Source: Chloroflexota bacterium (GTDB lineage: Bacteria; Chloroflexota; Anaerolineae; UBA4142). Taken from it: DNA of 64,000 bases. The translations under genes were made by a program, and so were the position numbers. The stretch is taken from positions 18,940 through 82,939 of the forward strand of contig JACRPR010000040.1 in assembly GCA_016223105.1 (NCBI GenBank), given 5' to 3'. Position 1 is the first letter of the stretch, and each line of letters opens with the position of its first letter. Shown here in pieces: positions 10,415 through 41,203 of this stretch. Below the pieces are notes generated by a model. It was not told the origin of the DNA and searched no databases. It saw only the letters and a list, made by a program, of their open reading frames with translations.

Positions 10415-10442
10415 GTAGGGCAAATTTGTAAATTTGCCTTAC
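10415..10442. repeat. Family-D hairpin, copy 1
   Basis: GTAGGGCAAATTTGTAAATTTGCCTTAC, directly after the kduD stop codon. Confidence 0.8.
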
Positions 10443-10459
10443 GAAAACAAAGGAGCACG

Positions 10460-11134
10460 ATGGCAAAGTATTCCCGACTCGAAACCTTGAACGCAATGGT
10501 AGACACCGGACTCGTCCCGGTTTTTTATCACGGCGATCTCGCGATCGCGAAAAAAATTGTCGCCGCATGCGCGCAGGGCGGTGCGCGGTGCATCGAGTTC
10601 ACCAATCGCGGCGACTTTGCGCCGTTCGTGTTCAAAGACCTCGCGGAATTTGTCGCGCGCGAAATTCCAAATGTGATCTTGGGTGTCGGTTCGATTGTGG
10701 ACGCGCCGACTGCATCGTTGTACATCGCGAGCGGCGCGCATTTCGTTGTGGGACCGGTCCTCAACCCGGAAGTTGCGCGCTTGTGCAATCGGCGCAAGAT
10801 TGCGTACGCGCCGGGATGCGCGACCGCGTCGGAAATTTCGCAAGCGGAAGAACTCGGCGTCGAGATCGTCAAAATTTTTCCGGGCGGACTCGTCGGCGGA
10901 CCGGAATTTGTAAAATCCATTCTCGCGCCGATGCCGTGGACGCGCATTATGCCGACCGGCGGCGTCGAGGCAACGCAAGCAAGTGTAACGGCGTGGATAC
11001 AAGCCGGGACTGCCGCGCTCGGCATCGGCTCGAATTTGATCACGAAAGAACGCATCGCGCAAAACAAGTGGGATGAAATCGCGCAAGCAACCGCGCAGGT
11101 GTTGATCTGGATTCGCGAAGCGCGTAGCAAATGA
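10460..11134 (+). CDS. eda: KDPG/KHG aldolase (Eda family)
   Basis: ATG at 10460 with RBS AAGGAG. Collinear with E. coli Eda, including the Schiff-base lysine context 'VKIFPG' and 'PTGGV'. Confidence 0.85.
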   Translation: MAKYSRLETLNAMVDTGLVPVFYHGDLAIAKKIVAACAQGGARCIEFTNRGDFAPFVFKDLAEFVAREIPNVILGVGSIVDAPTASLYIASGAHFVVGPVLNPEVARLCNRRKIAYAPGCATASEISQAEELGVEIVKIFPGGLVGGPEFVKSILAPMPWTRIMPTGGVEATQASVTAWIQAGTAALGIGSNLITKERIAQNKWDEIAQATAQVLIWIREARSK

Positions 11135-11209
11135 GTTTGTTAGTTGGATAGTTGCATAGTTGCCTGCAAACTATCCAACTATGCAACTATTCAACTTGGA
11201 GAAATGACG

Positions 11210-12355
11210 ATGGCTAAAGTTGTAACTTACAAAGAAATCAAACCGGCGGATCAATGTAAATATGACGGCGTCGCGCTCGGCGAAGTGATGATGCGGCTCG
11301 ATCCGTTCGATGTGCCGACCGCGCGCGCGCGCGCCCTGCGCGTGTTTCAAGGCGGCGGCGAAACGAATGTCGCGTGCGGACTCGCGTACACGTTCGGCTT
11401 GCGCGCGGCGATCATCACCGCGCTCGTGGACGACGACATTGGCAAAAACATTCGCAATCAATTGCGCGAATCGAATGTGGACACATCGAAAATAATTTGG
11501 TTCAACACAAAAAATGACGGCACGCGATTTTCGACCGATCAAAAAGGGATGCTGATGAACGGAATCAATTTCACGTTCGTCGGCAAGGGCGTGATTCCAT
11601 CGGACACGCTGTACTATCGCGCGCATACGCCGGTGCGCGAACTGCGCGCGGGCGATGTGAACTGGGACGCGTTGTTCGGCGCTGAAGGCGTGCGCGTGTT
11701 TAGCACTGGCGGAATTTACACTTTGCTTTCGCCAACCTCCGCCGAACTCGCGCGCGAAGCCGTGCAAACAGCGAACGCGTGCGGCACGTTCGTCGCCGCC
11801 GATTTGAATTATCGTTCCAAAGTCGAGCCGAATAAAAATCGCGCGCGCGAAATCAATCGGCAGATCACGCCGCACTTGGGATTTCTCGTCGGCAACGATA
11901 GCGATTTGAATGACGCGCTCGGATACGAAACGAAGGTGGACGCGGATGCGCCATACCAGGAATGGATCGCGGCGTATCAAGAAACAGTGCAACAAGTCGC
12001 GCGCGCTTTTCCAAATCTGTCGCTGATCGGAACGCAGTGGCGCGGTGCGACGAACGCCGACCTGGTTTCGTGGGGCGCGGTGGTGTACGACGCGCGCGAA
12101 AACAAAATGTATCACGCGCCTCTGCGCGAAGATGTGCCGATTGCCGATCGCACCGGCGGCGGCGATTCGTTCGCGTCGGGCGTGCTCGCGGCACTGCTCA
12201 AAGGCAAAGACCTCGCGACGGCAGTGCAGTGGGGCGCGGCGCACGGCATTCTCGTGCAAGAGACGCCGGGCGACACGACGCTGATCGAACAAAAATTAGT
12301 TGAAGCCGAAGTAAAACGCGCCGCGTCGAAAGGCGGCGTGCGCGCGACGCGCTAG
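11210..12355 (+). CDS. PfkB-family sugar kinase, probable 2-keto-3-deoxygluconate kinase
   Basis: ATG at 11210 with RBS GGAGA. 'GGGETNVA' and the C-terminal 'DRTGGGDSFASG' are PfkB signatures. Operon context supports the call. Confidence 0.75.
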   Translation: MAKVVTYKEIKPADQCKYDGVALGEVMMRLDPFDVPTARARALRVFQGGGETNVACGLAYTFGLRAAIITALVDDDIGKNIRNQLRESNVDTSKIIWFNTKNDGTRFSTDQKGMLMNGINFTFVGKGVIPSDTLYYRAHTPVRELRAGDVNWDALFGAEGVRVFSTGGIYTLLSPTSAELAREAVQTANACGTFVAADLNYRSKVEPNKNRAREINRQITPHLGFLVGNDSDLNDALGYETKVDADAPYQEWIAAYQETVQQVARAFPNLSLIGTQWRGATNADLVSWGAVVYDARENKMYHAPLREDVPIADRTGGGDSFASGVLAALLKGKDLATAVQWGAAHGILVQETPGDTTLIEQKLVEAEVKRAASKGGVRATR

Positions 12356-12370
12356 AAAAAACCGGCGCGA

Positions 12371-12414
12371 AAAAAACGCGGCGCGGGTCGTCCAACCCGC
12401 GCCGTGTTTTTTTT
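12371..12414. terminator. Bidirectional rho-independent terminator
   Basis: An A-run, the GC-rich hairpin ACGCGGCGCGGGT...ACCCGCGCCGTGT, then T8. It sits between convergent genes. Confidence 0.8.
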
Positions 12415-12463
12415 GCGCCCGACTTGCCCTCGTCGTACTAGCAGGGCGAAAAGACGCGACGCG

Positions 12464-13651
12464 TCATTCCGCCGGCGCGGACGCGACCACATGAAATTTT
12501 TCCGCATCGCCGTTGTGCACCGTCTCTTCGAACAACGGAAAGTAGCGACCGATCAATGTGTACACGACTGCCATCGCCGACAGCACGCCGAATTGAATCG
12601 CGATCTCCATCCAATGCGGAGTGTATTCGAATCCTGGCGCCGGCTTGAGCGCGAACCACGCCGCGTCAAACCGATTCAGGAAAATTCCAAACAGCACGAA
12701 CAGCGCGCCGATAAGCGTCCACACGCGATTGTGCCGCACCGTTTTCGACATGAACATTACGATGGGGATGGCGCATCCGATGATCAACTCGCTCCAGAAC
12801 AACACGCTGTAGAGATTGGCGGTAAGGAGCAAGCCGATTTCTTCGGCGATGAGCAGTTCGCCGAGTTTCATAATCGCGTAGAAACCGAGCACCCAGGGTA
12901 AGAACCAGCCGAAACTGCCGACGACTTTTTGCGGCAGACTTTGTTTGAACACCCAGTAACTGATCGTCGCGCCGCCGATAATCATCGCGAGTCCGGCGGC
13001 GACCGATGATACGAAAAAGAAAAACGGGATCAGCGGCGTGTACCACAACGGATGCAAGCGTTCCGACATCACGATGAACAGCGAGCCGAGCGACGATTGA
13101 TGCAAGGTCGAAAGTGTCGCGCCGATGATGACGAGCGGCACGGTGATTTTTTTAATCACATCGAGCACGCGTTGCCAACCCAGCCGTTGAAAAAAGACCG
13201 GGCTAAATTCCGAAATCAACACGGTCGTGTACAGCAAAATGCACCACGACACTTCGAACAATGCCGAATTGATATTCGGAAAAATCATAAAGTGATAGAA
13301 CCGATCCCAGCGTCCGAGATCCATCACGAGAATAATCAACACCGAAGCGTAGCCGAGCAAGCCGGTCAACACGGTCGGGCGCGTCGCCGCGTGAAACTCG
13401 TGCATCTGAAAAACATAGACGAGCGTCGCGAGCGTGAACGCGCCGCCGGAAAACGCGACGACGAACAAATCGAAACCGATCCACAAACCCCAGGGATAGC
13501 CGTGATTCAAATTCGTCGTCGTGCCGAGTCCGACCGCGAGCCGATACACGCCGACGCCGAGTCCGAACACGGTGAGCGCGATGAGCACCCACAGCCACGC
13601 CGGGAATGATTTGATTTCGCCGATGAATGTGCGCGCGATTTTTTGTGCCAT
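12464..13651 (-). CDS. NrfD/PsrC-type polytopic membrane anchor subunit
   Basis: 395 aa with about 10 hydrophobic helices. The N-terminal 'YPWGLWIGFDLFVVAFSGG' pattern is typical of NrfD/HybB-type quinone-interacting subunits. It is the last gene of the FDH operon. Confidence 0.75.
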   Translation of the reverse strand: MAQKIARTFIGEIKSFPAWLWVLIALTVFGLGVGVYRLAVGLGTTTNLNHGYPWGLWIGFDLFVVAFSGGAFTLATLVYVFQMHEFHAATRPTVLTGLLGYASVLIILVMDLGRWDRFYHFMIFPNINSALFEVSWCILLYTTVLISEFSPVFFQRLGWQRVLDVIKKITVPLVIIGATLSTLHQSSLGSLFIVMSERLHPLWYTPLIPFFFFVSSVAAGLAMIIGGATISYWVFKQSLPQKVVGSFGWFLPWVLGFYAIMKLGELLIAEEIGLLLTANLYSVLFWSELIIGCAIPIVMFMSKTVRHNRVWTLIGALFVLFGIFLNRFDAAWFALKPAPGFEYTPHWMEIAIQFGVLSAMAVVYTLIGRYFPLFEETVHNGDAEKFHVVASAPAE

Positions 13652-13670
13652 ATCATCCTTTCATTCGTTG

Positions 13671-14465
13671 TTATTTCTCGTGATTCTCCGCCGCGAGATA
13701 TTCGCGAATCACGTTGCGCCGTTTCACCATCCAGTACACACCGCTCAACGCCAACGCCATTCCGAGCGCGATCGTCGGCGTCGCGTGTAGAACCTTGTCG
13801 TTGAGATACACCGGCGTTTCTTTCGGCAGAGTCGGAAAGCCGATCTGCTCGAACGGCACGGACGACAAGTACATCCAACTCGTTCCGCCGACTTCTTCTT
13901 CGCCGTAAATGTGTTTGATGTACGGACTGTTTTTCGCGTACACGCGTTCGCGCGCGACGGTCAACAATTCTTCGCGATTGCCGAATTGAATCGCGCCTGC
14001 CGGACAAGTTTTCGCGCACGCTGGTTTCATTCCCGCGTCGACGCGATCAATGCACATCTCGCATTTTTTGATGAGCGCGAATGTTTGGTCCCACTCGAAC
14101 GTCGGCACGCCGAACGGACACGCGTACATACAATAGCGACAACCGATGCACCGGTTTTCATCGTACACGACCGGACCTTCCGCGCGTTTTTGCAGTGCGC
14201 CGACCGTGCACGCCGCGACACATCCCGGATGTTCGCAGTGCATACATTGACGTTTGACGAACACCCACGCGAGTTTATCTTTCAACTCGACTTCGCGAAA
14301 CTCGATGTTGGTCATTGTTTTCGATGTGAGGCGCGGCGGATTTTGGTACGTGCCGCGATTGCGCGTCAACTCCGCGGGCATATCGTTCCACTGCTTGCAC
14401 GCGACCTGGCATCCGCGACAGCCGATACATTTCGTTAGGTCTACTAACATTCCGTATTGATTCAT
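13671..14465 (-). CDS. Formate dehydrogenase 4Fe-4S iron-sulfur subunit (FdnH/HybA-like)
   Basis: Four Cys clusters: 'CIGCRGCQVACKQWN', 'CMHCEHPGCVAAC', 'CIGCRYCMYACP' and 'CEMC...C'. It has a C-terminal transmembrane helix. Confidence 0.85.
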   Translation of the reverse strand: MNQYGMLVDLTKCIGCRGCQVACKQWNDMPAELTRNRGTYQNPPRLTSKTMTNIEFREVELKDKLAWVFVKRQCMHCEHPGCVAACTVGALQKRAEGPVVYDENRCIGCRYCMYACPFGVPTFEWDQTFALIKKCEMCIDRVDAGMKPACAKTCPAGAIQFGNREELLTVARERVYAKNSPYIKHIYGEEEVGGTSWMYLSSVPFEQIGFPTLPKETPVYLNDKVLHATPTIALGMALALSGVYWMVKRRNVIREYLAAENHEK

Positions 14466-14494
14466 TAGTCACCTTCGGTGAGTGCACTATTGCA

Positions 14495-17400
14495 CTAGAT
14501 TTTCCTCACATCAACCAGAAACGCCTTGTATTCTGGAATCATCGTATTGCCATCGCCGACGTGCGGCGTGATGTCGTTCGCAATGTCGCCGGTCGCGAGA
14601 CCTTGCCAACCGTAATGCCAGGGCATTCCGATTTGCTGAATCGTTTTGCCGTTGATGACAACTGATTGCCAGCGCGCGGTTACATTCGCGATTGCGGTGA
14701 TTTCGCCGCGCGCGGATTGGATGACGACGCGGTCGCCGTTGTTAATGCCTTTTTGCGCCGCGAGTTCTTTGCCGATTTCGATGAACATTTCCGGGTGCGT
14801 TTCCGCGAGCCAGGGCAAGTTGCGACTCATCGCGCCGGCTTGCCAGTGTTCGGTCAAGCGATACGTTGTGCAAACGATGGGGAATTTTTCGAACGTGCCG
14901 ATGTTATCGCCAACGTCCTTGCCCGCGTCCGTCTTCCAAATTTTCACGACCGGATTATTTTGCGTTTTGGACAACGCGTTCGCAACCGGCGATTCAATCG
15001 GTTCGTAATGTTCCGGCAAAGGTCCTTCGTTCAAGCCCTTCGGCGCGAAGAGCCAGCCCTTGCCGTCCGCTTTCATAATGAACGGATCCGTCCCGGCTTG
15101 CGCCGCGAGTGCGGCTCCTGCCGGATCGGCTTTGGTGTTCGGCGCTTTGGTCGCGACGAAATCGGGCACGTCGTAACCGACCCAGGATTTTTTCTCCGCG
15201 TCCCACCAAATCAATTTTTTATTTTCCGCCCACGGCGTTCCATCCGGGCGCGCCGACGCGCGATTGTAGAGGACGTGCCGGTTCGCGGGCCATGCCCAAC
15301 CCCAGTACGGATACATTCCCAATCCGCCCGGGTCTTTTTGGCCGCGTCTCTGCGCCGCCGGTAAAATTTTTCCTTCACCGTCGTCAATCGGCGCGCGATA
15401 GCCGGAATAAATCCACACGCCGCACGCGATTTGATCCGGGTTCGCCGCGCTTGCAATCGTCGCGAAATTCGGAATGAGATTTCCTTTCGCGACAAGCACT
15501 TTGCCGATCGCGTCCTTGATGTCATCGAGCGCGAATCCGTTCATCTCGCGCGCGACGGCTTCGGCGGTCGGCGTGTCGCCGTAATCCCAAACCAGGTCGA
15601 GAATCGGGCGGTCTTTCGCGTCGCTCGAATTTTTGTAGAGCGATTTCAACGTCTTGGCGAGCCGGTCGAGTATCCACAAATCTTCGCGCGCATCGCCGGG
15701 TGCGCTCGCGATTTTTGGTCGCCACTGAATGCGGCGTCCGCTCGAAACGACACTGCCTTCTTTTTCGACCGCGTCCGCGGCGGGAAGCAAAAACACTTCG
15801 GTCTTGATGTCTGCCGAATTCACGCCCGGCGCTTTCCAAAAACTCGCGGTCTCGGTTTCGAACAAATCTATCGCGACGAGCCATTCGAGTTTTTCCAACG
15901 CCTTGCGTTCCATTCGCGAATTCGGACCCGCGACTGCCGGGTTTTGTCCCATGCACACGAGACCTTTGAGCTTGCCGGCGAACATCGTTTCAAAAAGTGA
16001 AATCCAGGAATAATTGCCGGAGGTTTTCGGCAAATAGTTGAACGCGTACTCGTTCTCTTTCGTCGCCGCGTTGCCGAACCACGCTTTCAAAAGCGAAACG
16101 AAAAATTTTGGACCGTTCGCCCAGTATGAAGTGGTATCGTACTTCGCGGTAAACGTCGCGAGGTCGGCTTGCTTGTCGGTCGGCAAACCCAGGTACGCCG
16201 GGAGCGCGTCGAACAGCAAGCCCATATCGGTCGAACCCTGCACGTTCGATTCGCCGCGCAACGCGTTGACGCCGCCGCCGGGCAAACCGATGTTGCCGAG
16301 GAGCAATTGCAAAATGCCCATCGAGCGCACGTTTTGCGTGCCGACGGTGTGTTGTGTTTGACCCATCGCGTACAAAATCGTGCCGGATTTGTCCACCGCG
16401 CCGGTCGCGCAAAATGCTTGTGCGACCGCGAGGAATTTTTCTTTCGGCGTGCCGGCAATTTTTCCGACGAGTTCCGGCGTATAGCGCGCGTAATGTTTTT
16501 TCAAAAGCGCGAACACGCAGTTCGCATCGTCGAGCGACGCGGCTTGCTTTGGCACGCTCACTTCTTTTTCGCCAACCTTGATTTTTTCGGTTTGATATTG
16601 CCACGACGCGTTGCCGTAACTCGCTTTTTCCGCGTCGAATCCGGAAAACAAACCGTCGAGGTCGGCGGGACCTTTGAACTCGGGCGCGATCAACGTGAGC
16701 GCGTTCGTGTACGCTTTGACGTACTCTTCGTTGTAGAGTTTATTTTGAATCGCGTAATTAATCAGTCCGCCGAGAAATACAATGTCCGTGCCGGGACGGA
16801 GCGGCGCGTAAATGTCCGCGCTCGCCGCGCTTCGCGACACGCGCGGATCCACGACGATTAATTTCGCGCCGTGTTCGCGCGCCTGGTTGATCCAAATAAA
16901 AGACGCGGGATGATTTTCCGCCGGGTTGCCGCCGATAATCAAAATCGCGTCGGCGTTTTTAATGTCCACCCAATCGTTCGTCATCGCGCCGCGGCCAAAT
17001 GTGGGGCTGAGACCAGCCACCGTCGCGCTGTGTCAGATCCGCGCCTGGTGTTCGAGATACACCAGCCCGAGCGCGCGCGTGAGTTTCGACGCCGCGTAAC
17101 AATCTTCGCTATTGTTCGCCGCGCCGCCGAGCCACGCAATCGCTTCCGCGCGATTCACCGCGACATTTTTATCGCCGACCTTGAATGTTTTCACGAACGA
17201 TTCATCGCGCGCTTTTTTCACGCGTTGCGCGATTTGTTCGATTGCCCAGTCCCAGGATTTTTCTTCCCACTGAGTCGCGCCGGGCGCGCGATAGCGCACC
17301 TTGCTCAAGCGCAGAGGGCTGTTCGAAAGTTGACGCACCGCGATGGATTTCGGGTCGAGCGCGCCGCGATTGACCGGATTGTCCGGGTCGCCTTCGACGT

Positions 17401-17602: not shown

Positions 17603-17644
17603 AACGATTCCTCCTGGGATGTGGGCGATTTTCTATGTGGCGAA

Positions 17645-17673: not shown

Positions 17674-17682
17674 GCAAACGCA

Positions 17683-19608: not shown

Positions 19609-19609
19609 T

Positions 19610-21366: not shown

Positions 21367-22758
21367 ATGTTAAACGATTCAACTAACCAACTATCCAACC
21401 ATCCAACTAACCAACCAACCGGCGCAGTCCTGGTTGTCGGCGCGGGGATTGGCGGAATGCAAGCATCGCTCGATCTCGCGGACGCCGGTTTTAAGGTGTA
21501 CTTGCTCGACCGCGCGCCCGCGATTGGCGGACGAATGGCGCAACTCGACAAAACATTTCCGACGAACGATTGCGCGATGTGCATCATGTCGCCGAAACTC
21601 GTCGAGACCGGACGCCATCTCAACATCGAAATCATCACGACCGCCGATTTGGAAAAAGTTGAAGGCGAGCCGGGAAATTTCACCGCGACGATTCGCGAGC
21701 ATCCGCGTTACGTTGATCTTTCGAAATGCACCGGGTGCGGCGATTGCGCGGCGAAATGTCCGATCACTTTGCCGGATGAATTTAATACCGGGATGAGCGC
21801 GCGCAAAGCGATTTACAAATTGTATCCGCAAGCGATTCCGAACGCGTTCGCGATTGAAAAGCGCGGCATCGCGCCGTGTCGCGACGCGTGCCCCGCGCAT
21901 CAACGCGCGATGGGTTATATCGCGCTGATTCGCGAACGCCGGTTCGCCGACGCGTATCGCGTGATCAAAGAAGACAATCCGTTTCCCTCGATTTGCGGAC
22001 GCGTCTGCATCGCGAAATGCGAGACCGCGTGCAATCGCGCGCAGTTCGATGCGCCGGTTGCGATTCGCGATTTGAAACGTTTCGTCGCGGATTGGGCGTG
22101 GAATCAGTCAGCAGTCAACAGTCAACAGTCAACAGTCGTCAGTCAACAGTCGTCAGTCAATTCCCAATTACCACTTACCAATTACCAGGTCGCAATCATT
22201 GGCTCCGGTCCCGCCGGGATGACCTGCGCGGCAGACCTGGTGCGACAAGGTTATGGCGTTACCGTGTTCGAAGCGTTGCCGGTCGCGGGCGGAATGATGC
22301 GCGTCGGCGTGCCGAATTTTCGCTTGCCGTACGACCGCGTGCAAAAAGAGATTGACGACATTCTCGCGCTTGGCGTCGAACTAAAATTGAACACGCGCAT
22401 TGATGATGTCGAAAAACTTTTCGTGGATGGATTCGATGCGGTCTTCTTCGCGGCTGGTTCACATCGCGCGCGCAAACTGCCGATCCCCAACGCGAATCAT
22501 CCCGACGCGATCCTCTCGTTGGATTTGTTGCGCGATACGAGTTTGGGAATTTCAGAATCAGGGAATCCCCAATCTGAAATCTGCAATTTGAAATCTAAAG
22601 TTGCGAATCGCCGCGTCCTGGTTTTGGGCGGCGGCGCAGTCGCGGTGGACGCGGCGACGACCGCGCGACGACTCGGCGCGTTCAGCGTTGCGATGGCTTG
22701 CCTCGACGCGCGCGCGACAATGCCCGCGACAAAAGAGGATTTGGCGCAAGCTGACTAA
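21367..22758 (+). CDS. HdrL-like giant fusion, N-terminal part (QmoA-like HdrA FAD domain, ferredoxin, NfnB/GltD Fe-S and first Rossmann domain)
   Basis: ATG at 21367 lies after the repeat. 'VVGAGIGGMQASLDLADAGFKVYLLDR...GGRMAQLDKTFPTNDCAMCIMSPK' is HdrA-type. 'CTGCGDCAAKCP'. 'CRDACPA...NPFPSICGRVCIAKCETACNR' and 'VAIIGSGPAGMTCAADL' are GltD/NfnB-type. It ends at an in-frame TAA (22756-22758) in the middle of a conserved domain. Confidence 0.8.
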   Translation: MLNDSTNQLSNHPTNQPTGAVLVVGAGIGGMQASLDLADAGFKVYLLDRAPAIGGRMAQLDKTFPTNDCAMCIMSPKLVETGRHLNIEIITTADLEKVEGEPGNFTATIREHPRYVDLSKCTGCGDCAAKCPITLPDEFNTGMSARKAIYKLYPQAIPNAFAIEKRGIAPCRDACPAHQRAMGYIALIRERRFADAYRVIKEDNPFPSICGRVCIAKCETACNRAQFDAPVAIRDLKRFVADWAWNQSAVNSQQSTVVSQQSSVNSQLPLTNYQVAIIGSGPAGMTCAADLVRQGYGVTVFEALPVAGGMMRVGVPNFRLPYDRVQKEIDDILALGVELKLNTRIDDVEKLFVDGFDAVFFAAGSHRARKLPIPNANHPDAILSLDLLRDTSLGISESGNPQSEICNLKSKVANRRVLVLGGGAVAVDAATTARRLGAFSVAMACLDARATMPATKEDLAQAD

Positions 22759-33915: not shown

Positions 33916-33983
33916 ATCACTTGCGTTCCGCATAATCGGATTTTGCGCGCACACCAAATCATAAATCGAAAATCGAAAATGCT

Positions 33984-35915
33984 ATGAAATCCCAAATCGG
34001 CGTTTACATTTGTCATTGCGGTTTGAATATCGCGAACACGGTGGACGTGGAGCAGGTGCGCGAGTTTGCGCGCATCTTGCCGAACGTCGCGATCGCGCGC
34101 AACTATACGTATATGTGCTCCGACCCAGGTCAAGCGTTGATCACGAACGACATTCGCGACCTGGGATTGACGCACGTCGTCGTCGCGTCGTGTTCGCCGC
34201 GGATGCACGAGCCAACTTTTCGCGCGACGATCCATAAAGCCGGGTTGAATCCGTACGTGTTAGAGATGGCGAACATTCGCGAGCAATGTTCCTGGGTTCA
34301 TTCGGATCGCACGCTCGCGACACTCAAGGCGATGGATTTGATCGCGTCGGCGGTTGCGAAGGTCGCTCTGCTCGTGCCATTGCAAGAGCGCGAGGTCAAG
34401 GTCACTCAATCTGCGCTCGTGATCGGCGGCGGTATCGCGGGAATGACTGCCACGCTCGATATTGCGAACGCCGGCTTCCAGGTTTGTCTCGTCGAAAAGC
34501 AAACACACCTCGGCGGACGCGTCGCGCAACTCGACACAACATTCCCAACCCAGGAACGCGTCGCCGATTTGCTCGCGCCCGTGTTGCGCGCGATAACGAC
34601 GCATCCCAACATTCGCGTCATTACGAACGCGGACGTTGAAAAAGTGGATGGGTTCATCGGCAATTTTCGCGCGACGATTCGCGCGCGCCCGACGTTCGTT
34701 GACGCGATGAAATGCGACGCGTGCGGGAAATGCGTGGACGCGTGCCCGGTGAATGTGCCGGACGCGTTCGACGCGAATCTCACGACGCGCCGCGCGATCT
34801 ATCGCGCGCCGGATGCGCGATTCGTGATCGACGCGCGCGCGTGTTCGTTTGTGCAGGATCGCGTCTGCCGATCCGATCCACGTTGCGCGGCGGTGTGTGA
34901 TCGCAACGCGATTGATTTTTCGCAAACCGAAAATCTGGTCGAGATCAACATCGGCGCGATCATCGTCGCGACCGGTGCGGCAACTTTCGACGCGACGAAA
35001 AAACCGGAACTGGGATTCGGCACGTACTCGAACGTGATCACCTCGTTGCAATTCGAGCGGCTTGCCGCGCGCCAGGAATTGCAATCGGTGAAGGATGTCG
35101 TGTTCGTCTCCTGCGTCGGCTCGCGCGATGCGACGACCGGCAATACCTATTGCTCGCGCGTCTGTTGTATGGTCAACGCGAAACAAGCGCGGCGCATCCA
35201 GGAAAAATTTCCCGACGCGCGCGTAACTGTGTTTTACGCGGACGTGCGCGCGTTCGGCAAAGGGCACGAAGAATTTTACGACGCGGTTCGCAAAACCGGC
35301 GTGCGCTATCGGCGCGGGTACGTGTCCGAAATTTTCGCCGCAGGCGGGCAGACGCCCAAACGCGATCAAAAATTGATCGTGCGCGCGGAAGACACGCTGA
35401 TTCAAAAACCAATCGAAGTTTCTGCCGACCTGGTTGTGCTGGGAATCGGAATGACGCCGCGCGCGGAGACGAACGAAATCGCGAATGTGCTGGGCTTGCC
35501 GCGTTCGGGCGATGGATTTTTGTTGGAGATTCATCCGAAACTGCGCCCGGTCGAAACCGCGGTGGATGGAGTTTTTCTCGCGGGCGCGTGCCAGGGACCA
35601 AAAGACATCGTGGACACGATCGCGCAAGCGCGCGCGGCGGCATCGTCCGCGTTCGCGTCGTTGTGTCGCGGGCAAGTGAAAATCGAATCCGCGACCGCGC
35701 GCGTGGATGAAGAGGTGTGCGCGGGTTGCGGCTTGTGCGTCGCGACGTGTCCGTACGGCGCGCCCGCATTGATCGCGCGCACGGGCACTGCGCGCGTAAA
35801 CCAGGTCTTGTGTAAAGGATGCGGCGCGTGCGAAGCCGCGTGTCCATCGAAAGCGATCCAGGTGATGCAATGCACACCGCGCCAAGTGCTTGCCCAGATC
35901 GCGGTGTTGGCGTAG
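33984..35915 (+). CDS. hdrA: Full-length HdrA-like flavoprotein (N-terminal CHCG domain, FAD domain, C-terminal 2x[4Fe-4S])
   Basis: 'GVYICHCGLNI', 'ASCSPRMHE', 'LVIGGGIAGMTATLDIANAG', 'SCVGSRD...YCSRVCCM', 'CAGCGLCVATCP' and 'CKGCGACEAACP'. The usual 'DKTFPTxDCxxC' site reads 'DTTFPTQERVADLL'. Confidence 0.85.
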   Translation: MKSQIGVYICHCGLNIANTVDVEQVREFARILPNVAIARNYTYMCSDPGQALITNDIRDLGLTHVVVASCSPRMHEPTFRATIHKAGLNPYVLEMANIREQCSWVHSDRTLATLKAMDLIASAVAKVALLVPLQEREVKVTQSALVIGGGIAGMTATLDIANAGFQVCLVEKQTHLGGRVAQLDTTFPTQERVADLLAPVLRAITTHPNIRVITNADVEKVDGFIGNFRATIRARPTFVDAMKCDACGKCVDACPVNVPDAFDANLTTRRAIYRAPDARFVIDARACSFVQDRVCRSDPRCAAVCDRNAIDFSQTENLVEINIGAIIVATGAATFDATKKPELGFGTYSNVITSLQFERLAARQELQSVKDVVFVSCVGSRDATTGNTYCSRVCCMVNAKQARRIQEKFPDARVTVFYADVRAFGKGHEEFYDAVRKTGVRYRRGYVSEIFAAGGQTPKRDQKLIVRAEDTLIQKPIEVSADLVVLGIGMTPRAETNEIANVLGLPRSGDGFLLEIHPKLRPVETAVDGVFLAGACQGPKDIVDTIAQARAAASSAFASLCRGQVKIESATARVDEEVCAGCGLCVATCPYGAPALIARTGTARVNQVLCKGCGACEAACPSKAIQVMQCTPRQVLAQIAVLA

Positions 35916-35936
35916 GGCAAATTTCCAATTTGCCAC
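35912..35936. repeat. Family-D hairpin, copy 2
   Basis: GTAGGGCAAATTTCCAATTTGCCAC. The TAG inside it is the hdrA stop codon. Confidence 0.8.
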
Positions 35937-35952
35937 ACAGACAGGAGTCAAA

Positions 35953-36171
35953 ATGGTTTGCCTCGAATTAACGGTGCGCGAAGCGGAATTGATGCATCGC
36001 ATTGTGAACAACCATCTCGCGGAAGTGCGCGCGGAAATTACCGCCGGCAAAATTGTGGATCTCGATGATCTGCTCACGTTTGAAGAGACCGCGCTCGCAC
36101 ACATTTTGGATGTGCTTTCCAAACAAGGCACGGGTTGTTGCGCCGAGCAGTACGGCGGCTATCCCGAATGA
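35953..36171 (+). CDS. Small hypothetical protein (72 aa), tandem paralog 1
   Basis: ATG at 35953 with RBS CAGGAG. Helical. 'LELTVREAELMHRIVNNHLAEVRAEI'. Confidence 0.55.
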   Translation: MVCLELTVREAELMHRIVNNHLAEVRAEITAGKIVDLDDLLTFEETALAHILDVLSKQGTGCCAEQYGGYPE

Positions 36172-36184
36172 AAGGACGTGCAAG

Positions 36185-36400
36185 ATGTTCAATCTCGAAT
36201 TGAGTCCGCGCCAAGCCGCGGTGCTTCACAAAATTCTGCAATCGTATCATTCCGATTTGCAATTGGAAATTTCGGATATGGACATTGAGGGTTTGAGTGA
36301 AGTGCTCATCGCCGAAGAAAACGCGGTCAATCAAATTCTCGCAGAGTTGGACGCGGCAGGTTTCGCGTTGACGATGGAAACCGGCGAATACGCGGGTTGA
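36185..36400 (+). CDS. Small hypothetical protein (71 aa), tandem paralog 2
   Basis: ATG at 36185 with RBS AAGGA. 'LELSPRQAAVLHKILQSYHSDLQLEI' aligns with the preceding ORF. Confidence 0.55.
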   Translation: MFNLELSPRQAAVLHKILQSYHSDLQLEISDMDIEGLSEVLIAEENAVNQILAELDAAGFALTMETGEYAG

Positions 36401-36406
36401 ATCGCG

Positions 36407-36865
36407 ATGGAAAATTCCGCGCGCAAAATTCTCGCGGTGCTCGGCGGACTCGGCACGCTTGTTCACGCGGAGCACACCGCCGAACTCGCGTGCCATTTGT
36501 GCGAAGGGCGCAGAGCCGACCTGGTTTTGGGTTACCCGATTATCGTCCCGCTCACCGCCGCGCTCGATGCGCGCTTGCCGACCCAGGAACGCGCGGCGCA
36601 GGACGCGATTGAATGTGGCTTGCGCGCGGTCGCGCAACGCAATTGTCGCGCGACAATCCATGTCGTGCGTCATCGCGATCCGGCGGAGGCGATCCTCGAA
36701 CTCGCGCGCGATGAACGCGCGGATGTCATTGTGCTGGGCATTCACGTCAATCCGAACGTCCCGCGCGATTATGATCGCGCTGAAACCGCCGAGGACGAAA
36801 TTTTGCGCCGCGCCGAATGTGAAGTGATTATAGACCGCGAACCGTTGTTAATTTCAGATGTATGA
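36407..36865 (+). CDS. Universal stress protein (UspA family)
   Basis: 152 aa. 'ILAV...', 'AILELARDERADVIVLG' and a C-terminal 'ILRRAECEVI' Usp-like pattern. Confidence 0.7.
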   Translation: MENSARKILAVLGGLGTLVHAEHTAELACHLCEGRRADLVLGYPIIVPLTAALDARLPTQERAAQDAIECGLRAVAQRNCRATIHVVRHRDPAEAILELARDERADVIVLGIHVNPNVPRDYDRAETAEDEILRRAECEVIIDREPLLISDV

Positions 36866-36887
36866 TTTCAGATTCCAAATTTTTACC

Positions 36888-36961
36888 GTCATTGCGAGCG
36901 AAGCGAAGCAATCCCCAATTTGCTACGCGGAGATTGCTTCGCATAAACCGCTCGCAATGAC
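36888..36961. repeat. Family-A palindromic element, copy 4
   Basis: GTCATTGCGAGCGAAGCGAAGCAATCCCCAA...GGAGATTGCTTCGCATAAACCGCTCGCAATGAC. Confidence 0.9.
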
Positions 36962-36987
36962 ACACTGAAATCTGAAATGGAGTTGCA

Positions 36988-38595
36988 ATGTACACACCAG
37001 AAATGCGCGAATCCATCGCGAAGGTGGAAGCGAGCCGCGCGCGCCGAATGAGCGAACGGCATCCCAGTCTCGCGCCGGACGAACGCCAGGACATTCTCAA
37101 AAAATTTCATCCCGATTTTATCGCGGACGCATTTCGCGCGCTCCGCGTCGGCGCGAATCGCGGCGACAAAACGCCGAACGAACTCGCGGACGTGCTCGAA
37201 GCGCGTTCGCCGATTGACTCGCCCGCGTTCGACTTGAATCGCGTGGACATCGAAACCGATGTGTTGATTATCGGCGGCGGCGGCGCAGGCGCGTGCGCGG
37301 CTCTGCTCGCGCAACAAGCCGGTGCGCGCGTTCTGCTCGCGACCAAATTGCGTTTCGGCGACGCGAACACGATGATGGCGCAAGGCGGCATCCAAGCCGC
37401 CGACAAGGAAAACGATTCGCCCGCGCAACATTATCTCGATGTGATCGGCGGCGGCGGATTCGCGAACGATCCCGACCTGGTGGATGCGCTCGTGAGCGAC
37501 GCGCCGATGGTGATCGCGTGGCTCGAATCGCTTGGCGTGATGTTCGAGAAAACGCGCGACGGCGAAATGGTAACGATTCACGGCGGCGGCACATCGCGCA
37601 AACGGATGCACTTTAGCCGCGATTATTCCGGCGCGGAAATTATGCGCGTCCTGCGCGATGAAGTCCGCAATCGCGATTCGATTCGCGTAATTGAATTTGC
37701 GCCGGCAATCGAACTCGTACTCAACTCGCGCGGACAGTGCGCGGGTGCGATTTTGCAAAACATCGAAACCGGCGAGCATTTGCTCGCGCGCGCGAAAACG
37801 ACAATCATCGCGACCGGCGGATCGGGGCGTTTGCATTATCAAAATTTTCCAACGACGAATCATTACGGCGCGACCGCCGATGGACTCGTGCTGGCGTATC
37901 GCGCCGGCGCGAAACTCGCGTTCATTGACACGATGCAATATCATCCGACCGGCGCGGCGTATCCCGAACAAATCCTGGGACAACTCGTTACCGAAAAAGT
38001 GCGCGGACTCGGCGCGCAAGTGTGCAATGCGGATGGCGAACAATTTGTCTATCCGCTCGAAACGCGCGATGTCGAATCCGCCGCATTCATTCGCGAATGT
38101 CGCGAACGCGGGCGCGGCATCAAAACGCCGACCGGACAATTCGGTGTGTGGCTCGACGCGCCGTTGATTGATCGGTTGCGCGGCGTGGGCACCATCGCGA
38201 AAGAATTACCGGCAATGGTGCGCCAATACAAACGTTTTGGAATTGACCTGGTCAAAGAACCGATCCTGGTTTATCCGACTCTGCATTATCAAAACGGCGG
38301 CGTCGCGATCAAACCGGATGGCGCGACGAGCGTGCCGAATTTATTTGTCGCCGGCGAAGCATCGGGCGGCGTGCATGGGCGCAATCGTTTGATGGGCAAC
38401 AGTTTGCTCGATGTGTGTGTGTTCGGTCGCCGCGCCGGGATCGCGGCGGCGGAACGCGCGCGTGAATACCAGGATGGCGCCGCGCTCACGTTCGATCATC
38501 TCGCGCGCTGGGAACGCGCGCGCGCGGACGCCGGTTTGAACGATGGCATCGTCGCGCCGATCCTGTTGCCGGATTACACGCGGCACGGGCGCTGA
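36988..38595 (+). CDS. FAD-dependent succinate dehydrogenase/fumarate reductase flavoprotein-like oxidoreductase (TfrA/NadB-like)
   Basis: 'DVLIIGGGGAGACAAL', 'ANTMMAQGGIQAA', 'HPTG' and 'GLFVAGEASGGVHGRNRLMGNSLLD' are SdhA/FrdA-family motifs. RBS GGAG. Confidence 0.8.
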   Translation: MYTPEMRESIAKVEASRARRMSERHPSLAPDERQDILKKFHPDFIADAFRALRVGANRGDKTPNELADVLEARSPIDSPAFDLNRVDIETDVLIIGGGGAGACAALLAQQAGARVLLATKLRFGDANTMMAQGGIQAADKENDSPAQHYLDVIGGGGFANDPDLVDALVSDAPMVIAWLESLGVMFEKTRDGEMVTIHGGGTSRKRMHFSRDYSGAEIMRVLRDEVRNRDSIRVIEFAPAIELVLNSRGQCAGAILQNIETGEHLLARAKTTIIATGGSGRLHYQNFPTTNHYGATADGLVLAYRAGAKLAFIDTMQYHPTGAAYPEQILGQLVTEKVRGLGAQVCNADGEQFVYPLETRDVESAAFIRECRERGRGIKTPTGQFGVWLDAPLIDRLRGVGTIAKELPAMVRQYKRFGIDLVKEPILVYPTLHYQNGGVAIKPDGATSVPNLFVAGEASGGVHGRNRLMGNSLLDVCVFGRRAGIAAAERAREYQDGAALTFDHLARWERARADAGLNDGIVAPILLPDYTRHGR

Positions 38596-38597
38596 AC

Positions 38598-38623
38598 GTA
38601 GGGCAAATTTCTAATTTGCCCGG
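38598..38623. repeat. Family-D hairpin, copy 3
   Basis: GTAGGGCAAATTTCTAATTTGCCCGG, 3 nt after the flavoprotein stop. Confidence 0.8.
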
Positions 38624-38633
38624 ACGTGAGAAA

Positions 38634-38966
38634 ATGATTATGCCAGACGTAAATCCGCTCGTCGCGATTCGCGACCAGGAACGCGCACTCGCGCAAAAAA
38701 TTCGCGCGGCGCAAGAACGCGCCACTGCGCGCATTGCCGACGCGCGCGCGCGCGCGGACGCGCTCAAACAAACTGCGGAACGCGAAGGAGTGCGCGATGC
38801 GGACGCGCTCTATCAAGCCGGTTTGGAACGCGCGCGGGCACAAGCCGGTGAAATCGAAAAAAATGGTCAAGCGCAATCCGTCGCGCGCGCGGACGCGGGG
38901 CGCGCGCATTTAGCACGCGCGGTCGAATCCATCATCGCATTTGTTTTGCCGCGCGTTGAAAAATGA
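38634..38966 (+). CDS. V/A-type ATPase peripheral-stalk subunit (G/H-like)
   Basis: About 110-aa Ala/Arg/Glu-rich coiled coil ('AQKIRAAQERATARIADARARADALKQTAERE'). It is the first gene of the V-ATPase operon, as in the Thermus atpG position. Confidence 0.55.
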   Translation: MIMPDVNPLVAIRDQERALAQKIRAAQERATARIADARARADALKQTAEREGVRDADALYQAGLERARAQAGEIEKNGQAQSVARADAGRAHLARAVESIIAFVLPRVEK

Positions 38967-38995
38967 ATCAACCATTTGTCATTTGAGAATTTACG

Positions 38996-40873
38996 ATGAT
39001 TGTCCCAATGTCCAAAATCCAAATCATCGGCACGCGCGCCGAACTCGATGCGACGGTGCGCGTCTTGCACGATGCGGGGGTCGTGCAGATCGAAGAAAAA
39101 CCGGCGGCGGTCGACGCGTTGATCCTGGATGCGCGCGCGGCGCATCAACGCGACGGAATCACCGCGCTCGTTACGCGGCTCGATGCGTTGCTCGCGCTAT
39201 TGCCCGTGGTCGCGCCAACGCAAATCGCGCGCCGCGATGATGTGGACGTGTTGATCGGACAAGTGAAAGCCGCGCTCGCACAACTCGACGCGCCCGCGCA
39301 AAACCTGGCGCGGCGACGCGATGATCTCGAAGCCGATCGCGTTACGTTGCCGCGTTATGCCAAGACGATGCGCCAACTGATGCCGCTGTCGGCTGAACTT
39401 GCGCTAATGCAAAATTACGAAACGGTCGCGCTATTGGTGGATCGCAAATTTAGCGCGGTGATCGAAATGGTGCGCGCGGAATTGCCCGCGCTGACGAACG
39501 ATGAATTTGAAATGGTGTCGCGTGAAGTGGATCGCGACACGACCGCCGCGCTCTTAGTTTTTCCGCGCGCACACTCGACTGCGATCCACACCTTGCTCGG
39601 TCGCGAAAGTATTACGCAAGTGCGTTTGCCGGATGAGTTGGTCAATGTTCCTTTCAAAGAAGCGTTGGCGACGATTCAAGCGCGGCTCGCCGCGATTCCG
39701 GCGGAAGCGGAAAAAATTCAACACGAATTGCACGCGCTCGCGCGTGAGTGGCGCGCGCGGCTCGCCGCGTGGCGCGCGGTTCTGCGCGATCGCTTGCGTG
39801 AGATCGAGGTGCGCGAAAAATTCGGCGCGACCGAGTACGCGTTTGTCGCCGTCGGTTGGATGCCGCAAAAAAATGTTTCGGCGTTGCGCGATGCGTTGGC
39901 GCGCGCGGTCGGCGAAAATGTTTTGCTCGACGAATTGCCGCTCACCGCGCACGAACGCGAACACGCCCCGGTCGTGCTGGACAATCCGCGCGTCGCGCGA
40001 CCGTTCGAGTTTTTGGTGCGCTTGATGGCACTGCCGCGTTACGGCACGATTGACCCGACGCCGATCATGGCGATCTTTTTACCGATTTTTTTCGGAATGA
40101 TTTTGGGCGATGTCGCGTACGGCGCGCTCGTGCTCGGCGGCGTGATCTATTTTTTGCGGAAACCAAAATCGGACGGCATGCGAAATTTGCTCACGATCAT
40201 GCTCTATTGCGCGTTGTGGTCAATCGCGTTTGGATTTGTGTACGGCGAATTTTTCGGCGAACTGGGCGAGCACATCGGACTGCATCCGTACTTTCCGCGC
40301 GGCGAAGCGGTTGTTCCGCTTTTTGCATTTTCGATTGCGTTCGGCATCGTGCAAATCGCGCTCGGGTTCGCGCTCGGAATTTATCAAGCGATCAAATTGC
40401 ATCAACGCAACGAACTGCTCGACCGCATCGCCAAAGTGATCGCGCTGATCGCGATTTTAGCAATGGTCGCCGCGTCGTCTGGCGCGTTGCCGAAAGAAAT
40501 GTTCACGCCCGCGCTCGCGCTGTTGATCGTCGGCACAGTGTTGTTGATGTACACGCTCGGTTGGATCGGTCTCTTGCTCGCGCCGATTGAAATTCTCGGC
40601 GTGGTCGGCAACATTTTGTCGTACTTGCGGCTCGCCGCGATTGGATTGTCGTCGGTGTATCTCGCAATGGTCGCGAACAAACTCGCCGGCATTTTCGGCA
40701 ATGTGATCATCGGCGGCATCGTCGCCGGCTTGTTTCACGCGCTCAATCTCGCGCTCGGAATTTTGAGTCCGACGATTCAATCACTGCGTTTGCATTACGT
40801 TGAATTTTTTGGAAAATTTTTTGAAGGCGGCGGCGTGGAGTTTAAACCATTTCGACGCGAAGGAATTGGATGA
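38996..40873 (+). CDS. atpI: V/A-type ATPase subunit I (a-subunit)
   Basis: 625 aa. Soluble N-terminal half plus a polytopic C-terminal half with 'LSYLRLAAIGLSSVYLA' (conserved Arg) and 'LRLHYVEFFGKFF'. Confidence 0.9.
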   Translation: MIVPMSKIQIIGTRAELDATVRVLHDAGVVQIEEKPAAVDALILDARAAHQRDGITALVTRLDALLALLPVVAPTQIARRDDVDVLIGQVKAALAQLDAPAQNLARRRDDLEADRVTLPRYAKTMRQLMPLSAELALMQNYETVALLVDRKFSAVIEMVRAELPALTNDEFEMVSREVDRDTTAALLVFPRAHSTAIHTLLGRESITQVRLPDELVNVPFKEALATIQARLAAIPAEAEKIQHELHALAREWRARLAAWRAVLRDRLREIEVREKFGATEYAFVAVGWMPQKNVSALRDALARAVGENVLLDELPLTAHEREHAPVVLDNPRVARPFEFLVRLMALPRYGTIDPTPIMAIFLPIFFGMILGDVAYGALVLGGVIYFLRKPKSDGMRNLLTIMLYCALWSIAFGFVYGEFFGELGEHIGLHPYFPRGEAVVPLFAFSIAFGIVQIALGFALGIYQAIKLHQRNELLDRIAKVIALIAILAMVAASSGALPKEMFTPALALLIVGTVLLMYTLGWIGLLLAPIEILGVVGNILSYLRLAAIGLSSVYLAMVANKLAGIFGNVIIGGIVAGLFHALNLALGILSPTIQSLRLHYVEFFGKFFEGGGVEFKPFRREGIG

Positions 40874-40874
40874 T

Positions 40875-40944
40875 GTCATTGCGAGCGAAGCGAAGCAATC
40901 CCCGCGCGACGGATTGGAGATTGCTTCACTTCGCTCGCAATGAC
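40875..40944. repeat. Family-A palindromic element, copy 5
   Basis: GTCATTGCGAGCGAAGCGAAGCAATCCCCGCG...GGAGATTGCTTCACTTCGCTCGCAATGAC, immediately after the atpI stop. Confidence 0.9.
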
Positions 40945-40962
40945 AGTGCGAAGGAGGTTACG

Positions 40963-41178
40963 ATGATGCAGGATCCGCAAGCACAATTGGTGCAAATGTA
41001 CATCGAAGAATTTTTGCGCGAAAAAAATCACACCTGGGACAGCGTGTGTCATCTCGCGGACAAAGCCGAGGCGAAACGCTTGATGATCGAGGCGTCCACC
41101 TACGCGGCGATCAAAGCCGCAGAGGTCGGCGCGCGCGCGAACGTCATTCACGAATTGCACGGCACGGTGCAGATGTAG
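40963..41178 (+). CDS. Orphan small protein (71 aa) inside the V-ATPase operon
   Basis: ATG at 40963 is preceded by a strong RBS, AAGGAGG. Non-repetitive helical sequence 'MMQDPQAQLVQMYIEEFLREKNHTWDSVCHLADKAEAKRL...'. No family recognised. Confidence 0.5.
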   Translation: MMQDPQAQLVQMYIEEFLREKNHTWDSVCHLADKAEAKRLMIEASTYAAIKAAEVGARANVIHELHGTVQM

Positions 41179-41203
41179 GGCAAATTTATAAATTTGCCTG
41201 ACG
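41175..41203. repeat. Family-D hairpin, copy 4
   Basis: GTAGGGCAAATTTATAAATTTGCCTGAC. The TAG inside it is the stop of the orphan ORF. Confidence 0.8.

Follow-up and report, generated by a model that had tools for sequence, protein, structure and literature searches.

The GTAG-tagged REP superfamily (Di Nocera, De Gregorio and Rocco 2013, BMC Genomics 14:522) takes in the SMAG repeats of S. maltophilia and the REPs of Pseudomonas and E. coli. Its members have a 5' GTAG beside a stem-loop with a stem of 6-13 bp and a loop of 2-4 nt, include G-T pairs in the stem, and occur in many dispersed copies as singletons, dimers or clusters, lying between co-directional genes, close to where the upstream ORF ends. 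They are associated with genes for REP-associated tyrosine transposases (RAYT, or TnpA_REP). GTAG REPs occur in Chloroflexi among other phyla and lie near the 3' ends of upstream ORFs, where their TAG supplies stop codons (Di Nocera et al. 2013, PMC3733652). The RAYT is an HUH/Y1 protein, and a RAYT gene with its flanking cognate GTAG REPs is known as a REPtron (Nunvar et al. 2010; Ton-Hoang et al. 2012; Corneloup et al. 2021). The GTAG motif is required for RAYT activity and helps to choose the cleavage site (Corneloup et al. 2021, PMC8266576).

We examined four short hairpins in a 64-kb stretch of DNA, called the window here, and found that the repeat to which they belong shares with the superfamily the GTAG head beside a short stem-loop, G-T pairs in stems, a position at the 3' ends of genes with TAG as a stop codon, singletons, dimers and clusters, presence in Chloroflexota and an association with RAYT genes. 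The four elements are very probably singleton copies of a GTAG-tagged REP family that was most likely spread by a RAYT. A GTAG-headed REP whose TAG doubles as a stop codon is already described for this class of repeat. The family differs from classical GC-rich REPs in that its stem, GGCAAATT/AATTTGCC, is AT-rich in the centre. It also differs from the many REP families that are mostly dimers, since the copies in the window are all single and in one orientation.

Anatomy and position of the four copies

The repeat is a 27-28-nt unit of the form GTAGGGCAAATT-N3-4-AATTTGCC-NNAC, with four copies in the window, all on the + strand. It comprises a 5' GTAG head, an 8-9-bp stem, a variable loop of 3-4 nt and a degenerate CTAC-like tail. 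Searching the window with GTAGGGCAAATTTNNAATTTGCC and allowing up to three mismatches, we obtained matches at 10415, 35912, 38598 and 41175, and a fifth that was the reverse reading of the palindrome at 35912. The chance expectation is 0, as no match to GTAGGGCAAATTTNNAATTTGCC was found in any of 100 dinucleotide-preserving shuffles, and this confirms the four positions reported in a first-pass annotation of the sequence. That annotation also correctly gave all copies a leading GTAGGG, which occurs four times on the + strand of the window, always inside a copy, and a conserved stem with a variable loop (TGTA, TCC, TCT and TATA in copies with an 8-9-bp core). The length given there, 25 nt, is corrected here to 27-28 nt. 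A degenerate NNAC tail mirrors the GTAG head; it reads TTAC, ACAC, GGAC and TGAC in the window and CTAC or CCAC in relatives.

Copy 1 (10415..10442, + strand; GTAGGGCAAATTTGTAAATTTGCCTTAC) lies between an SDR/KduD-like ORF (9649-10413), whose TAG stop at 10411-10413 is 1 nt before the GTAG, and a KDPG aldolase gene with its ATG at 10460. Copy 2 (35912..35938, +; GTAGGGCAAATTTCCAATTTGCCACAC) contributes its own TAG at 35913-35915 as the stop codon of an HdrA-like gene (33984..35915, +) encoding Pfam domains Pyr_redox_2, Fer4 and others, and the next ATG is at 35953. An exact look-up of the HdrA-like protein returned no record. Copy 3 (38598..38625, +; GTAGGGCAAATTTCTAATTTGCCCGGAC) is found 2 nt past the TGA of an FAD flavoprotein gene (36988-38595) and 8 nt before the start of V-ATPase subunit G at 38634. 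The TAG of copy 4 (41175..41202, +; GTAGGGCAAATTTATAAATTTGCCTGAC), at 41176-41178, is the stop of a small ORF that is followed by the V-ATPase subunit K start at 41218. In all four cases the copy begins 0-2 nt after the stop codon or has its TAG in common with it: two TAGs are the actual stop, as the first reading of the sequence held, and the other two stops are 1 and 2 nt upstream. All four are singletons that are intergenic or overlap a stop (4 per 64 kb), and no second, inverted REP arm of the kind seen in REPINs lies within 100 nt of any of them.

The small ORF (40963..41178, +; about 71 aa, MMQDPQAQLV...), whose frame is terminated by copy 4, had been taken for an orphan. It is a conserved small gene with homologues called as genes of 70 aa in locus L110 and 78 aa in L114, between subunits I and K. 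A longer 102-aa ORF (40870-41178) begins inside a GTCATTGCGAGCGAAGC repeat, and its apparent N-terminus is this repeat in translation. When metagenomes were scanned for a pattern from the 3' end of this ORF, just two loci matched.

The following start codons lie 8-17 nt past the copy ends, each preceded by a Shine-Dalgarno-like purine run. This upholds the observation that the next gene is closely downstream. That it always belongs to the same operon may not be true of copy 3, which could separate two transcription units. The V-ATPase operon in L114 and L116 begins with subunit G and has different upstream neighbours.

The sequences after the hairpins (TTACGAAAACAAAGG, ACACAGACAGGAG, CGGACGTGAGAAA and TGACGACCTGGGAGG) contain no T-run, in agreement with the earlier view that these are not classical terminators. 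The stable palindromes at gene ends could still suggest a terminator or attenuator that lacks a U-tract, or an operator palindrome bound in duplex DNA by a dimeric protein. Both are scarcely conceivable, given that a start codon and ribosome-binding site follow within 8-17 nt, that terminators would not have a common sequence across unrelated genes and phyla, and that an array of 13 copies at one related locus, L020, is unlike an operator. Changes in the stem argue against them as well. For the change from GGG/CCC to GGA/TCC, 24 oriented copies were compensated versus 4 uncompensated, in a count for which copies were selected on the invariant core only; covariation among hairpins preselected for pairing was judged circular and was left out of the evidence. 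These compensatory changes point to an element that pairs as a hairpin and not to a fixed duplex site.

The window units have 8-12 paired positions and fall in the range of short palindromes (20-50 nt) expected of a GTAG-tagged REP. Predicted RNA folding energies are -13.4, -8.1, -11.4 and -9.6 kcal/mol for copies 1 to 4, and the DNA folds range from -6.9 to -8.8 kcal/mol (-7.6 kcal/mol for copy 1). Folding z-scores of the four copies against shuffles are -3 to -6. Copy 1 forms a 12-bp hairpin that includes one G-U pair.

Dispersal, gain and loss in related genomes

Exact matches to the repeat were found at 109 or more loci in about 54 assemblies, mostly Chloroflexota MAGs, with several per genome. 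Nearly the same sequence is present in several Chloroflexota classes and in a few MAGs labelled as other phyla, a wider spread than that of most described REP families. We did not find the stem GGCAAATT/AATTTGCC in the text or available supplements of Di Nocera et al. 2013, and the family may be one of those whose 24 consensus sequences that paper shows in a figure. A literature search by repeat sequence returned primers alone.

Among the listed loci the repeat takes the form of singletons, inverted doublets, MITE-like units and tandem arrays, and perfect 27-28-nt palindromes of the type GTAG..CTAC occur among relatives. The inverted doublets (GTAG-hairpin-spacer-hairpin-CTAC) form a self-complementary MITE-like unit of about 98 nt at no fewer than 12 loci (L054 and 11 others). 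They resemble REPINs (Bertels and Rainey 2011) in this respect and differ from them in that the two hairpins, GGCAAATT and GCGCAATT, are not identical and that the copies in the window are single. Inverted dimers and clusters of the BIME type were seen in related genomes only. Tandem arrays were seen at L020 (58-nt period, 13 copies) and L023. We considered whether the L020 array is a CRISPR and rejected this, because two hairpins alternate within each 58-nt period and unique spacers are missing. Elsewhere copies lie inside genes, on their 5' side or around a transposase gene, and both orientations occur. Clustering of the ORFs around the 109 loci revealed no recurrent neighbour gene, which is expected for dispersed repeats.

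Copies 1, 3 and 4 are missing from the same site in relatives of 85-91% identity. L129, which is the same strain, has copy 1; the corresponding spacer of L130-L134 lacks it, and in L133 this empty spacer is 15 nt long. Copy 2 has an orthologous copy in L110, GTAAGGCAAATTTCCAATTTGCCCCAC, whose TAA is the called stop. Copy 3 is found at the same site in L128 with another loop and tail and is absent from L110 and L127. Copy 4 is absent from L110, L127 and L128; in all three the corresponding codon is TAA, and the sequence beyond it is unrelated. Conversely, V-ATPase subunit I of L110 ends with an additional copy that is missing from the window. The same spacers in other lineages contain unrelated palindromic repeats or nothing, and a copy after the RNase J gene is kept in both L050 and L109. 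An association with the lagging strand was dropped because GC skew was uninformative on replication direction.

These patterns bear on whether the hairpin is instead an RNA element dedicated to stop codons and kept there by selection, which tunes termination, translational coupling or the 3'-end stability of specific cistrons. Such a role would account for four copies that are all sense-oriented and at or 0-2 nt past stops, for the G-U pair that lengthens the stem of copy 1, for the hdrA copy kept in L110 with its stop preserved as TAA, and for the RNase J copy common to L050 and L109; the stop-proximal REPs of E. coli, which reportedly lower expression of the upstream gene, also speak for it. 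Selection for a function could likewise account for hdrA and RNase J copies that are conserved between lineages at orthologous sites. However, three of the four sites are empty in close relatives with the same gene order, the spacers of other lineages hold other palindromes or none, the repeat also lies within and upstream of genes, forms arrays, surrounds a transposase gene and is found in both orientations, and an Rfam 15 scan of the whole window gave 0 matches at the gathering score. We therefore consider a dedicated RNA element quite improbable and regard any RNA effect as a by-product or later co-option. The occurrence of the same sequence in so many unrelated contexts argues against a stop-linked RNA element, one of the early suggestions, as its primary identity. 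The other early suggestion, an insertion-prone repeat with TAG in its target, is essentially right: the presence/absence polymorphism and a flanked RAYT gene favour insertion. It differs in one detail, as the TAG is part of the element's own conserved GTAG head.

A RAYT gene flanked by the repeats

By reading the ORF between two repeat copies at locus L081, we identified a gene (4725-5408) predicted to encode a REP-associated tyrosine transposase. The protein matches the curated NCBIfam model NF047646 (REP_Tyr_transpos) at 89 bits versus a cut-off of 80, matches Pfam Y1_Tnp, contains the motif NHGHVV and has E. coli TnpA_REP (4ER8) as its best PDB match (E = 1.6e-6). The flanking repeats, GTAGGGCAAATTGCCAATTTGCC and GTAGGGCAAATTGACAATTTGCCCTAC, have the same stem as the copies in the window. 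Homologues with 59-72% identity occupy the same place downstream of metH in L117, L119, L121 and L124, where they are flanked by REPs of the class xxCAAATT-N3-AATTTGxx that have compensated stem-base variants and keep the GTAG. In all, five MAGs have a RAYT gene 3' of metH with flanking REPs of this class.

This arrangement corresponds to the REPtron, with the exact window stem in L081, and is particularly like the short-perfect-palindrome group in having a RAYT gene flanked by cognate GTAG REPs at one syntenic site. Unlike E. coli TnpA_REP (165 aa), the putative RAYTs are about 215 aa long with an N-terminal extension. The REPtron is known here from genes of related MAGs alone, and its REP TAG ends both metH and the RAYT gene. 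The fixed site after metH fits a domesticated transposase, inherited vertically as a single-copy gene. Neither a RAYT nor a metH gene is present in the 64-kb window. A regular expression for the HUH and tyrosine motifs had no match in the window or any of the loci and was too strict, since the RAYT has NHGHVV.

We also considered whether the repeat is a non-autonomous derivative of IS200/IS605 type, that is, a palindrome-associated element or MITE moved by a classical multi-copy TnpA and not by a domesticated RAYT. In favour of this, some genomes have the hairpin as part of longer repeats (about 89 and 98 nt), and in L021 and L036 there are ORFs for other kinds of Y1-like transposase close to copies. 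We nevertheless find this origin very improbable: the transposase that is flanked on both sides passes the curated RAYT cut-off, its single syntenic position after metH in five MAGs is unlike a mobile IS, and no large gene, such as one the size of TnpB, recurs beside the copies at the 109 loci.

Spread by a RAYT thus remains the preferred reading. Single-stranded DNA hairpins of the family would be propagated by this HUH/Y1 transposase, a step that we infer from biochemistry in E. coli, S. maltophilia and Marinomonas and from the REPtron architecture in related genomes. As in the systems studied, the RAYT would recognise the hairpin together with the GTAG tetranucleotide. Copies would then survive where they are harmless, just beyond the 3' ends of genes.

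Stop codons, transcripts and possible consequences for the host

With TAG in its head, a copy that adjoins an ORF end or overlaps it can provide the stop codon while the protein is unchanged. Among independently called genes, the REP TAG ends metH in four of the five MAGs and the RAYT gene in four of the five, and it also terminates V-ATPase subunit I in L110. In a frame-resolved count over a wider sample, 22 of 152 oriented copies among the matches listed had an open frame of at least 100 codons ending exactly on the TAG, and Pfam domains were present in all 10 of the TAG-ended ORFs tested. The frame GTA-GGG gave 25 long open frames too, a mix of intragenic copies and spurious ORFs. Where orthologues lack the element, their TAA occupies the codon position at which the REP supplies the stop.

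Inserted copies would be transcribed in polycistronic mRNAs as moderately stable hairpins of -8 to -13 kcal/mol. These may protect the upstream cistron from 3' exonucleases or, because they begin 0-6 nt past the stop, may slow termination; an influence on the stability of the mRNA or on termination of translation is plausible. In E. coli, REP/BIME sequences stabilise the 3' ends of upstream cistrons. When a REP in E. coli lies no more than about 15 nt from a stop codon, it reportedly lowers expression of the upstream gene, and the mechanism is said to be ribosome stalling and trans-translation. The repeats described here resemble those of E. coli in placing a hairpin inside operons directly past stops, well within 15 nt. 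Unlike E. coli REPs, they form shorter and weaker hairpins and are known from their sequence only, and the host is an uncultured Chloroflexota bacterium with an RNase set that differs from that of E. coli.

It is possible, and in our judgement distinctly unlikely, that the accumulation at stop codons goes beyond passive tolerance and reflects either a preference of RAYT insertion for GTA/TA(A/G) or co-option of the repeats as intercistronic devices in Chloroflexota. If co-opted, they would set the relative output of neighbouring genes, such as those for V-ATPase subunits, HdrA or metH and RAYT, through termination-coupled melting of the hairpin or through 3'-end protection. In that case, lasting selection for a function in the host would underlie the near-identity of the repeat across several classes, and even in MAGs labelled as other phyla, together with the fixed metH-RAYT-REP order.

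The main relevance of the finding is to the annotation of uncultured Chloroflexota and to an understanding of their genome structure. Genuine stop codons come from these repeats, as do spurious extensions of ORFs. The repeats probably also break metagenome assemblies, since most of the contigs with a RAYT gene have a length of only about 1 kb. The transposase clade is well defined and has a constant site beside metH, which provides a clean system for RAYT-REP co-evolution outside Proteobacteria. If the overlap with stop codons were to prove targeted or functional, the link between REPs and translation in E. coli would extend to a distant phylum.

GTAG-headed palindromes at gene ends in the window

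A mismatch-tolerant search of the window found the motif at 10415, 35912, 38598 and 41175, in all four cases on the + strand, and no match occurred in 100 dinucleotide-preserving shuffles. On this strand GTAGGG occurs at four places, all of them the elements themselves. Each is a GTAG-headed palindromic repeat (REP) of 27-28 nt, not 25 nt as first described, when a degenerate NNAC tail that mirrors the GTAG head is included. Pfam identified the genes in these regions as encoding an SDR protein, a KDPG aldolase, an HdrA-like protein, an FAD flavoprotein, and V-ATPase subunits G, I and K. From the sequence and ORF table, the TAG of the REP head is the stop codon of both the HdrA-like gene (33984-35915, +) and a small ORF ending at 41178 (+). 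The SDR/KduD-like gene (+) ends on its own TAG 1 nt upstream of the copy at 10415 and the flavoprotein gene (+) ends on a TGA 2 nt upstream of the copy at 38598. These results confirm the first-pass annotation, which placed four copies on or just after stop codons, with the TAG being the actual stop in two cases and the stop lying slightly upstream in the other two.

For isolated copies the predicted folding energies (kcal/mol) range from -8.1 to -13.4 in the RNA form and from -6.9 to -8.8 in the DNA form. None of the four is directly followed by a T-run, in agreement with the earlier remark that a U-tract is absent. The following start codon is 8-17 nt from the end of the REP, with a purine-rich ribosome-binding site there.

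The window contains other repeats. A second family (GTCATTGCGAGCGAAGCGAAGCAATC) has five arms where 0 are expected by chance, at 5224-5249 (+), 36888-36913 (+), 40875-40944 (an inverted pair), and 50562-50587 (-). The inverted pair begins 2 nt past the stop (TGA) of V-ATPase subunit I and, when translated, forms a false N-terminus (..RAKRSNP..LLHFARND..) of ORF 40870-41178. A GC-rich palindrome, GTAGCGCGGGCGGCTCGCCCGCTGGCAGGCGAGCCGCCTGCGCTAC, at 52441-52486 (related arm at 3820-3849) starts with GTAG and ends with CTAC, and appears to be a further, distinct REP-like element with a GTAG tag in this genome. There is also a perfect 19-bp hairpin, GTGATGCGTGATGCGTGAA-TT-TTCACGCATCACGCATCAC, just upstream of the SDR gene (9589-9628), a 15-bp hairpin, AGACCCTAAAGGTTT-CCG-AAACCTTTAGGGTCT, at 50236-50268, and a run of CAGTCAA/CAGTCGT heptamers followed by ATTACCA-like repeats at 22105-22190.

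Distribution, stem pairing and stop codons across genomes

Scanning one genome per species with the pattern GTAGGGCAAATT-N2-6-AATTTGCC returned at least 109 loci from about 54 assemblies. Most are from Chloroflexota MAGs (Anaerolineae, Caldilineae, Chloroflexia, Thermoflexia, Ardenticatenaceae, and Ca. Aquidulcis); a few assemblies among the matches listed are labelled Caldithrix, Bacteroidales, Desulfobacterales or Mannheimia. No recurrent gene family adjoins the REP copies among these matches. The commonest form listed is GTAGGGCAAATTGCCAATTTGCCC(C/T)AC, frequently perfectly palindromic between its GTAG and CTAC ends. The listed REPs occur as singletons and in several composite forms: an inverted doublet (GTAG-hairpin-spacer-second hairpin-CTAC) within a self-complementary unit of ~98 nt at 12 or more loci, an 89-nt repeated unit at 7 or more loci, and a tandem array of 13 copies with a 58-nt period at one locus (L020). 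In a further composite unit, ..GATGAAAATG-N6-REP-CATTTTCGAAGGAG-N6-ATG, an outer 7-bp stem encloses the REP directly 5' of a ribosome-binding site and start codon. This unit was found at 10 or more loci (L019, L022, L032, L036, L037, L072, L077, L092, L102, L107) and several times per genome, as in MAG H23_303.

When sites were chosen solely by the invariant core CAAATT..AATTTG, the stem-base triplets GGG/CCC were replaced by compensated GGA/TCC in 24 oriented copies versus 4 with uncompensated changes among the matches listed. Pairing of the REP stem therefore matters.

Copies also occur inside genes. In L021, a MAG locus labelled Bacteroidales, GTAGGGCAAATTCATGAATTTGCCCTAC at 3934-3961 is in frame in a Y1-transposase-like ORF (3686-4183, -) and encodes VGQIHEFAL, read as GTA-GGG-CAA. 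A long frame is open in this phase at 25 oriented copies among the matches listed.

The association with stop codons could have been a coincidence of the four copies in the window. Counting 152 oriented copies in the at least 109 loci, we found 22, among the matches listed, in which a frame that is open for 100 codons or more ends exactly on the head TAG. All ten ORFs tested from this group contain Pfam domains, some of which reach the C-terminus (e.g., RNase J, aminotransferase, MFS transporter). Thus, the stop-codon link is a general property of the family, which counters coincidence. It is already in the literature on GTAG-tagged REPs: Di Nocera et al. 2013 (PMC3733652) distinguish 24 families from several phyla including Chloroflexi, place most of the repeats between co-directional or convergent genes, just past where the upstream ORF ends, and note that the TAG supplies stop codons.

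Gain and loss at orthologous sites

The strain of the window is also present in the reads of SRR12113394. In relatives at 85-91% identity gene order is kept but the elements are not. After hdrA, the relative L110 keeps the REP as a GTAA variant in which TAA is the stop. The copy after the flavoprotein gene is present in L128 and absent from L110 and L127, and that after the small ORF is absent from all three, where the same codon reads TAA. The end of V-ATPase subunit I carries the GTCATTGCGAGCGAAGCGAAGCAATC inverted pair in the window, a REP variant with its TAG as the stop in L110 and L127, and neither in L128. In the kduD-eda spacer the REP is absent from five relatives (L130-L134). These differences indicate that copies come and go over short evolutionary spans.

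The kduD-eda spacer is a bare 15 nt in L133. The other four relatives have unrelated palindromic repeats in place of the REP (L130-L132, 1101-1200; L134, 1134-1200), such as TTGGAAATTGGAAGTTGGA...TCCAACTTCCAACGTCCAA, as independent hits by different small repeats. Several kinds of small palindrome land in the intercistronic spacers of these genomes.

A REP-associated transposase beside metH

Chloroflexota MAG CFX11 (L081) has two REP copies 717 nt apart with an ORF (4725-5408) between them. This ORF matches the NCBIfam model for REP-associated tyrosine transposase, or RAYT (NF047646; 89 bits, cut-off 80), and Pfam Y1_Tnp, and its best solved-structure match is E. coli TnpA_REP (4ER8). The TAG of the left REP ends an upstream gene with a methionine synthase activation domain and that of the right REP ends the transposase gene itself. 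A search at E <= 1e-10 yields 2441 homologues of this protein, many with the JGI name RayT. Contigs with these homologues are ~1 kb in most cases, as if flanking repeats break assemblies.

Four further homologues with 59-72% identity were retrieved from other MAGs (L117, L119, L121, and L124; gene at 1501-2148). In all five Chloroflexota MAGs the RAYT gene is immediately 3' of metH, encoding B12-dependent methionine synthase. GTAG REPs of the same class are on at least one side of each of the four further genes, with lineage-specific compensated stems (CGCAAATT, GACAAATT, AACAAATT, GGCAAGAT); L119 has no REP downstream of the RAYT gene. According to the gene calls in the databases, metH stops on the REP TAG in four of five MAGs, and the RAYT gene does so in four of five. 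This layout is the REPtron arrangement, a RAYT gene with flanking REPs, which is the defining trait of REP/RAYT systems. The constant place beside metH is compatible with a vertically inherited, domesticated transposase.

Two readings had been offered for the window copies. Turnover at orthologous sites and the REPtron in related MAGs support the insertion-prone repeat, with the TAG being part of the element's own head; the data can be explained without a dedicated stop-codon-linked RNA element. The elements belong to the GTAG-tagged REPs with a cognate RAYT, known here from related MAGs, and as far as we checked the literature this family in this lineage had not been described. Effects on mRNA are plausible by analogy with E. 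coli, where REPs give 3' protection to upstream cistrons and where, reportedly in work by Liang et al. in 2015, a REP no more than about 15 nt from the stop reduces translation; copies might act likewise through 3' protection or reduced translation near the stop.

RAYT activity requires the GTAG motif, which is also involved in cleavage-site choice (Corneloup et al. 2021, PMC8266576). Judging from other systems, the RAYT would mobilise REPs as single-stranded hairpins, and copies would survive mainly at harmless sites. Because the head carries a TAG, a copy may share the last nucleotides of an ORF and leave the protein unchanged.
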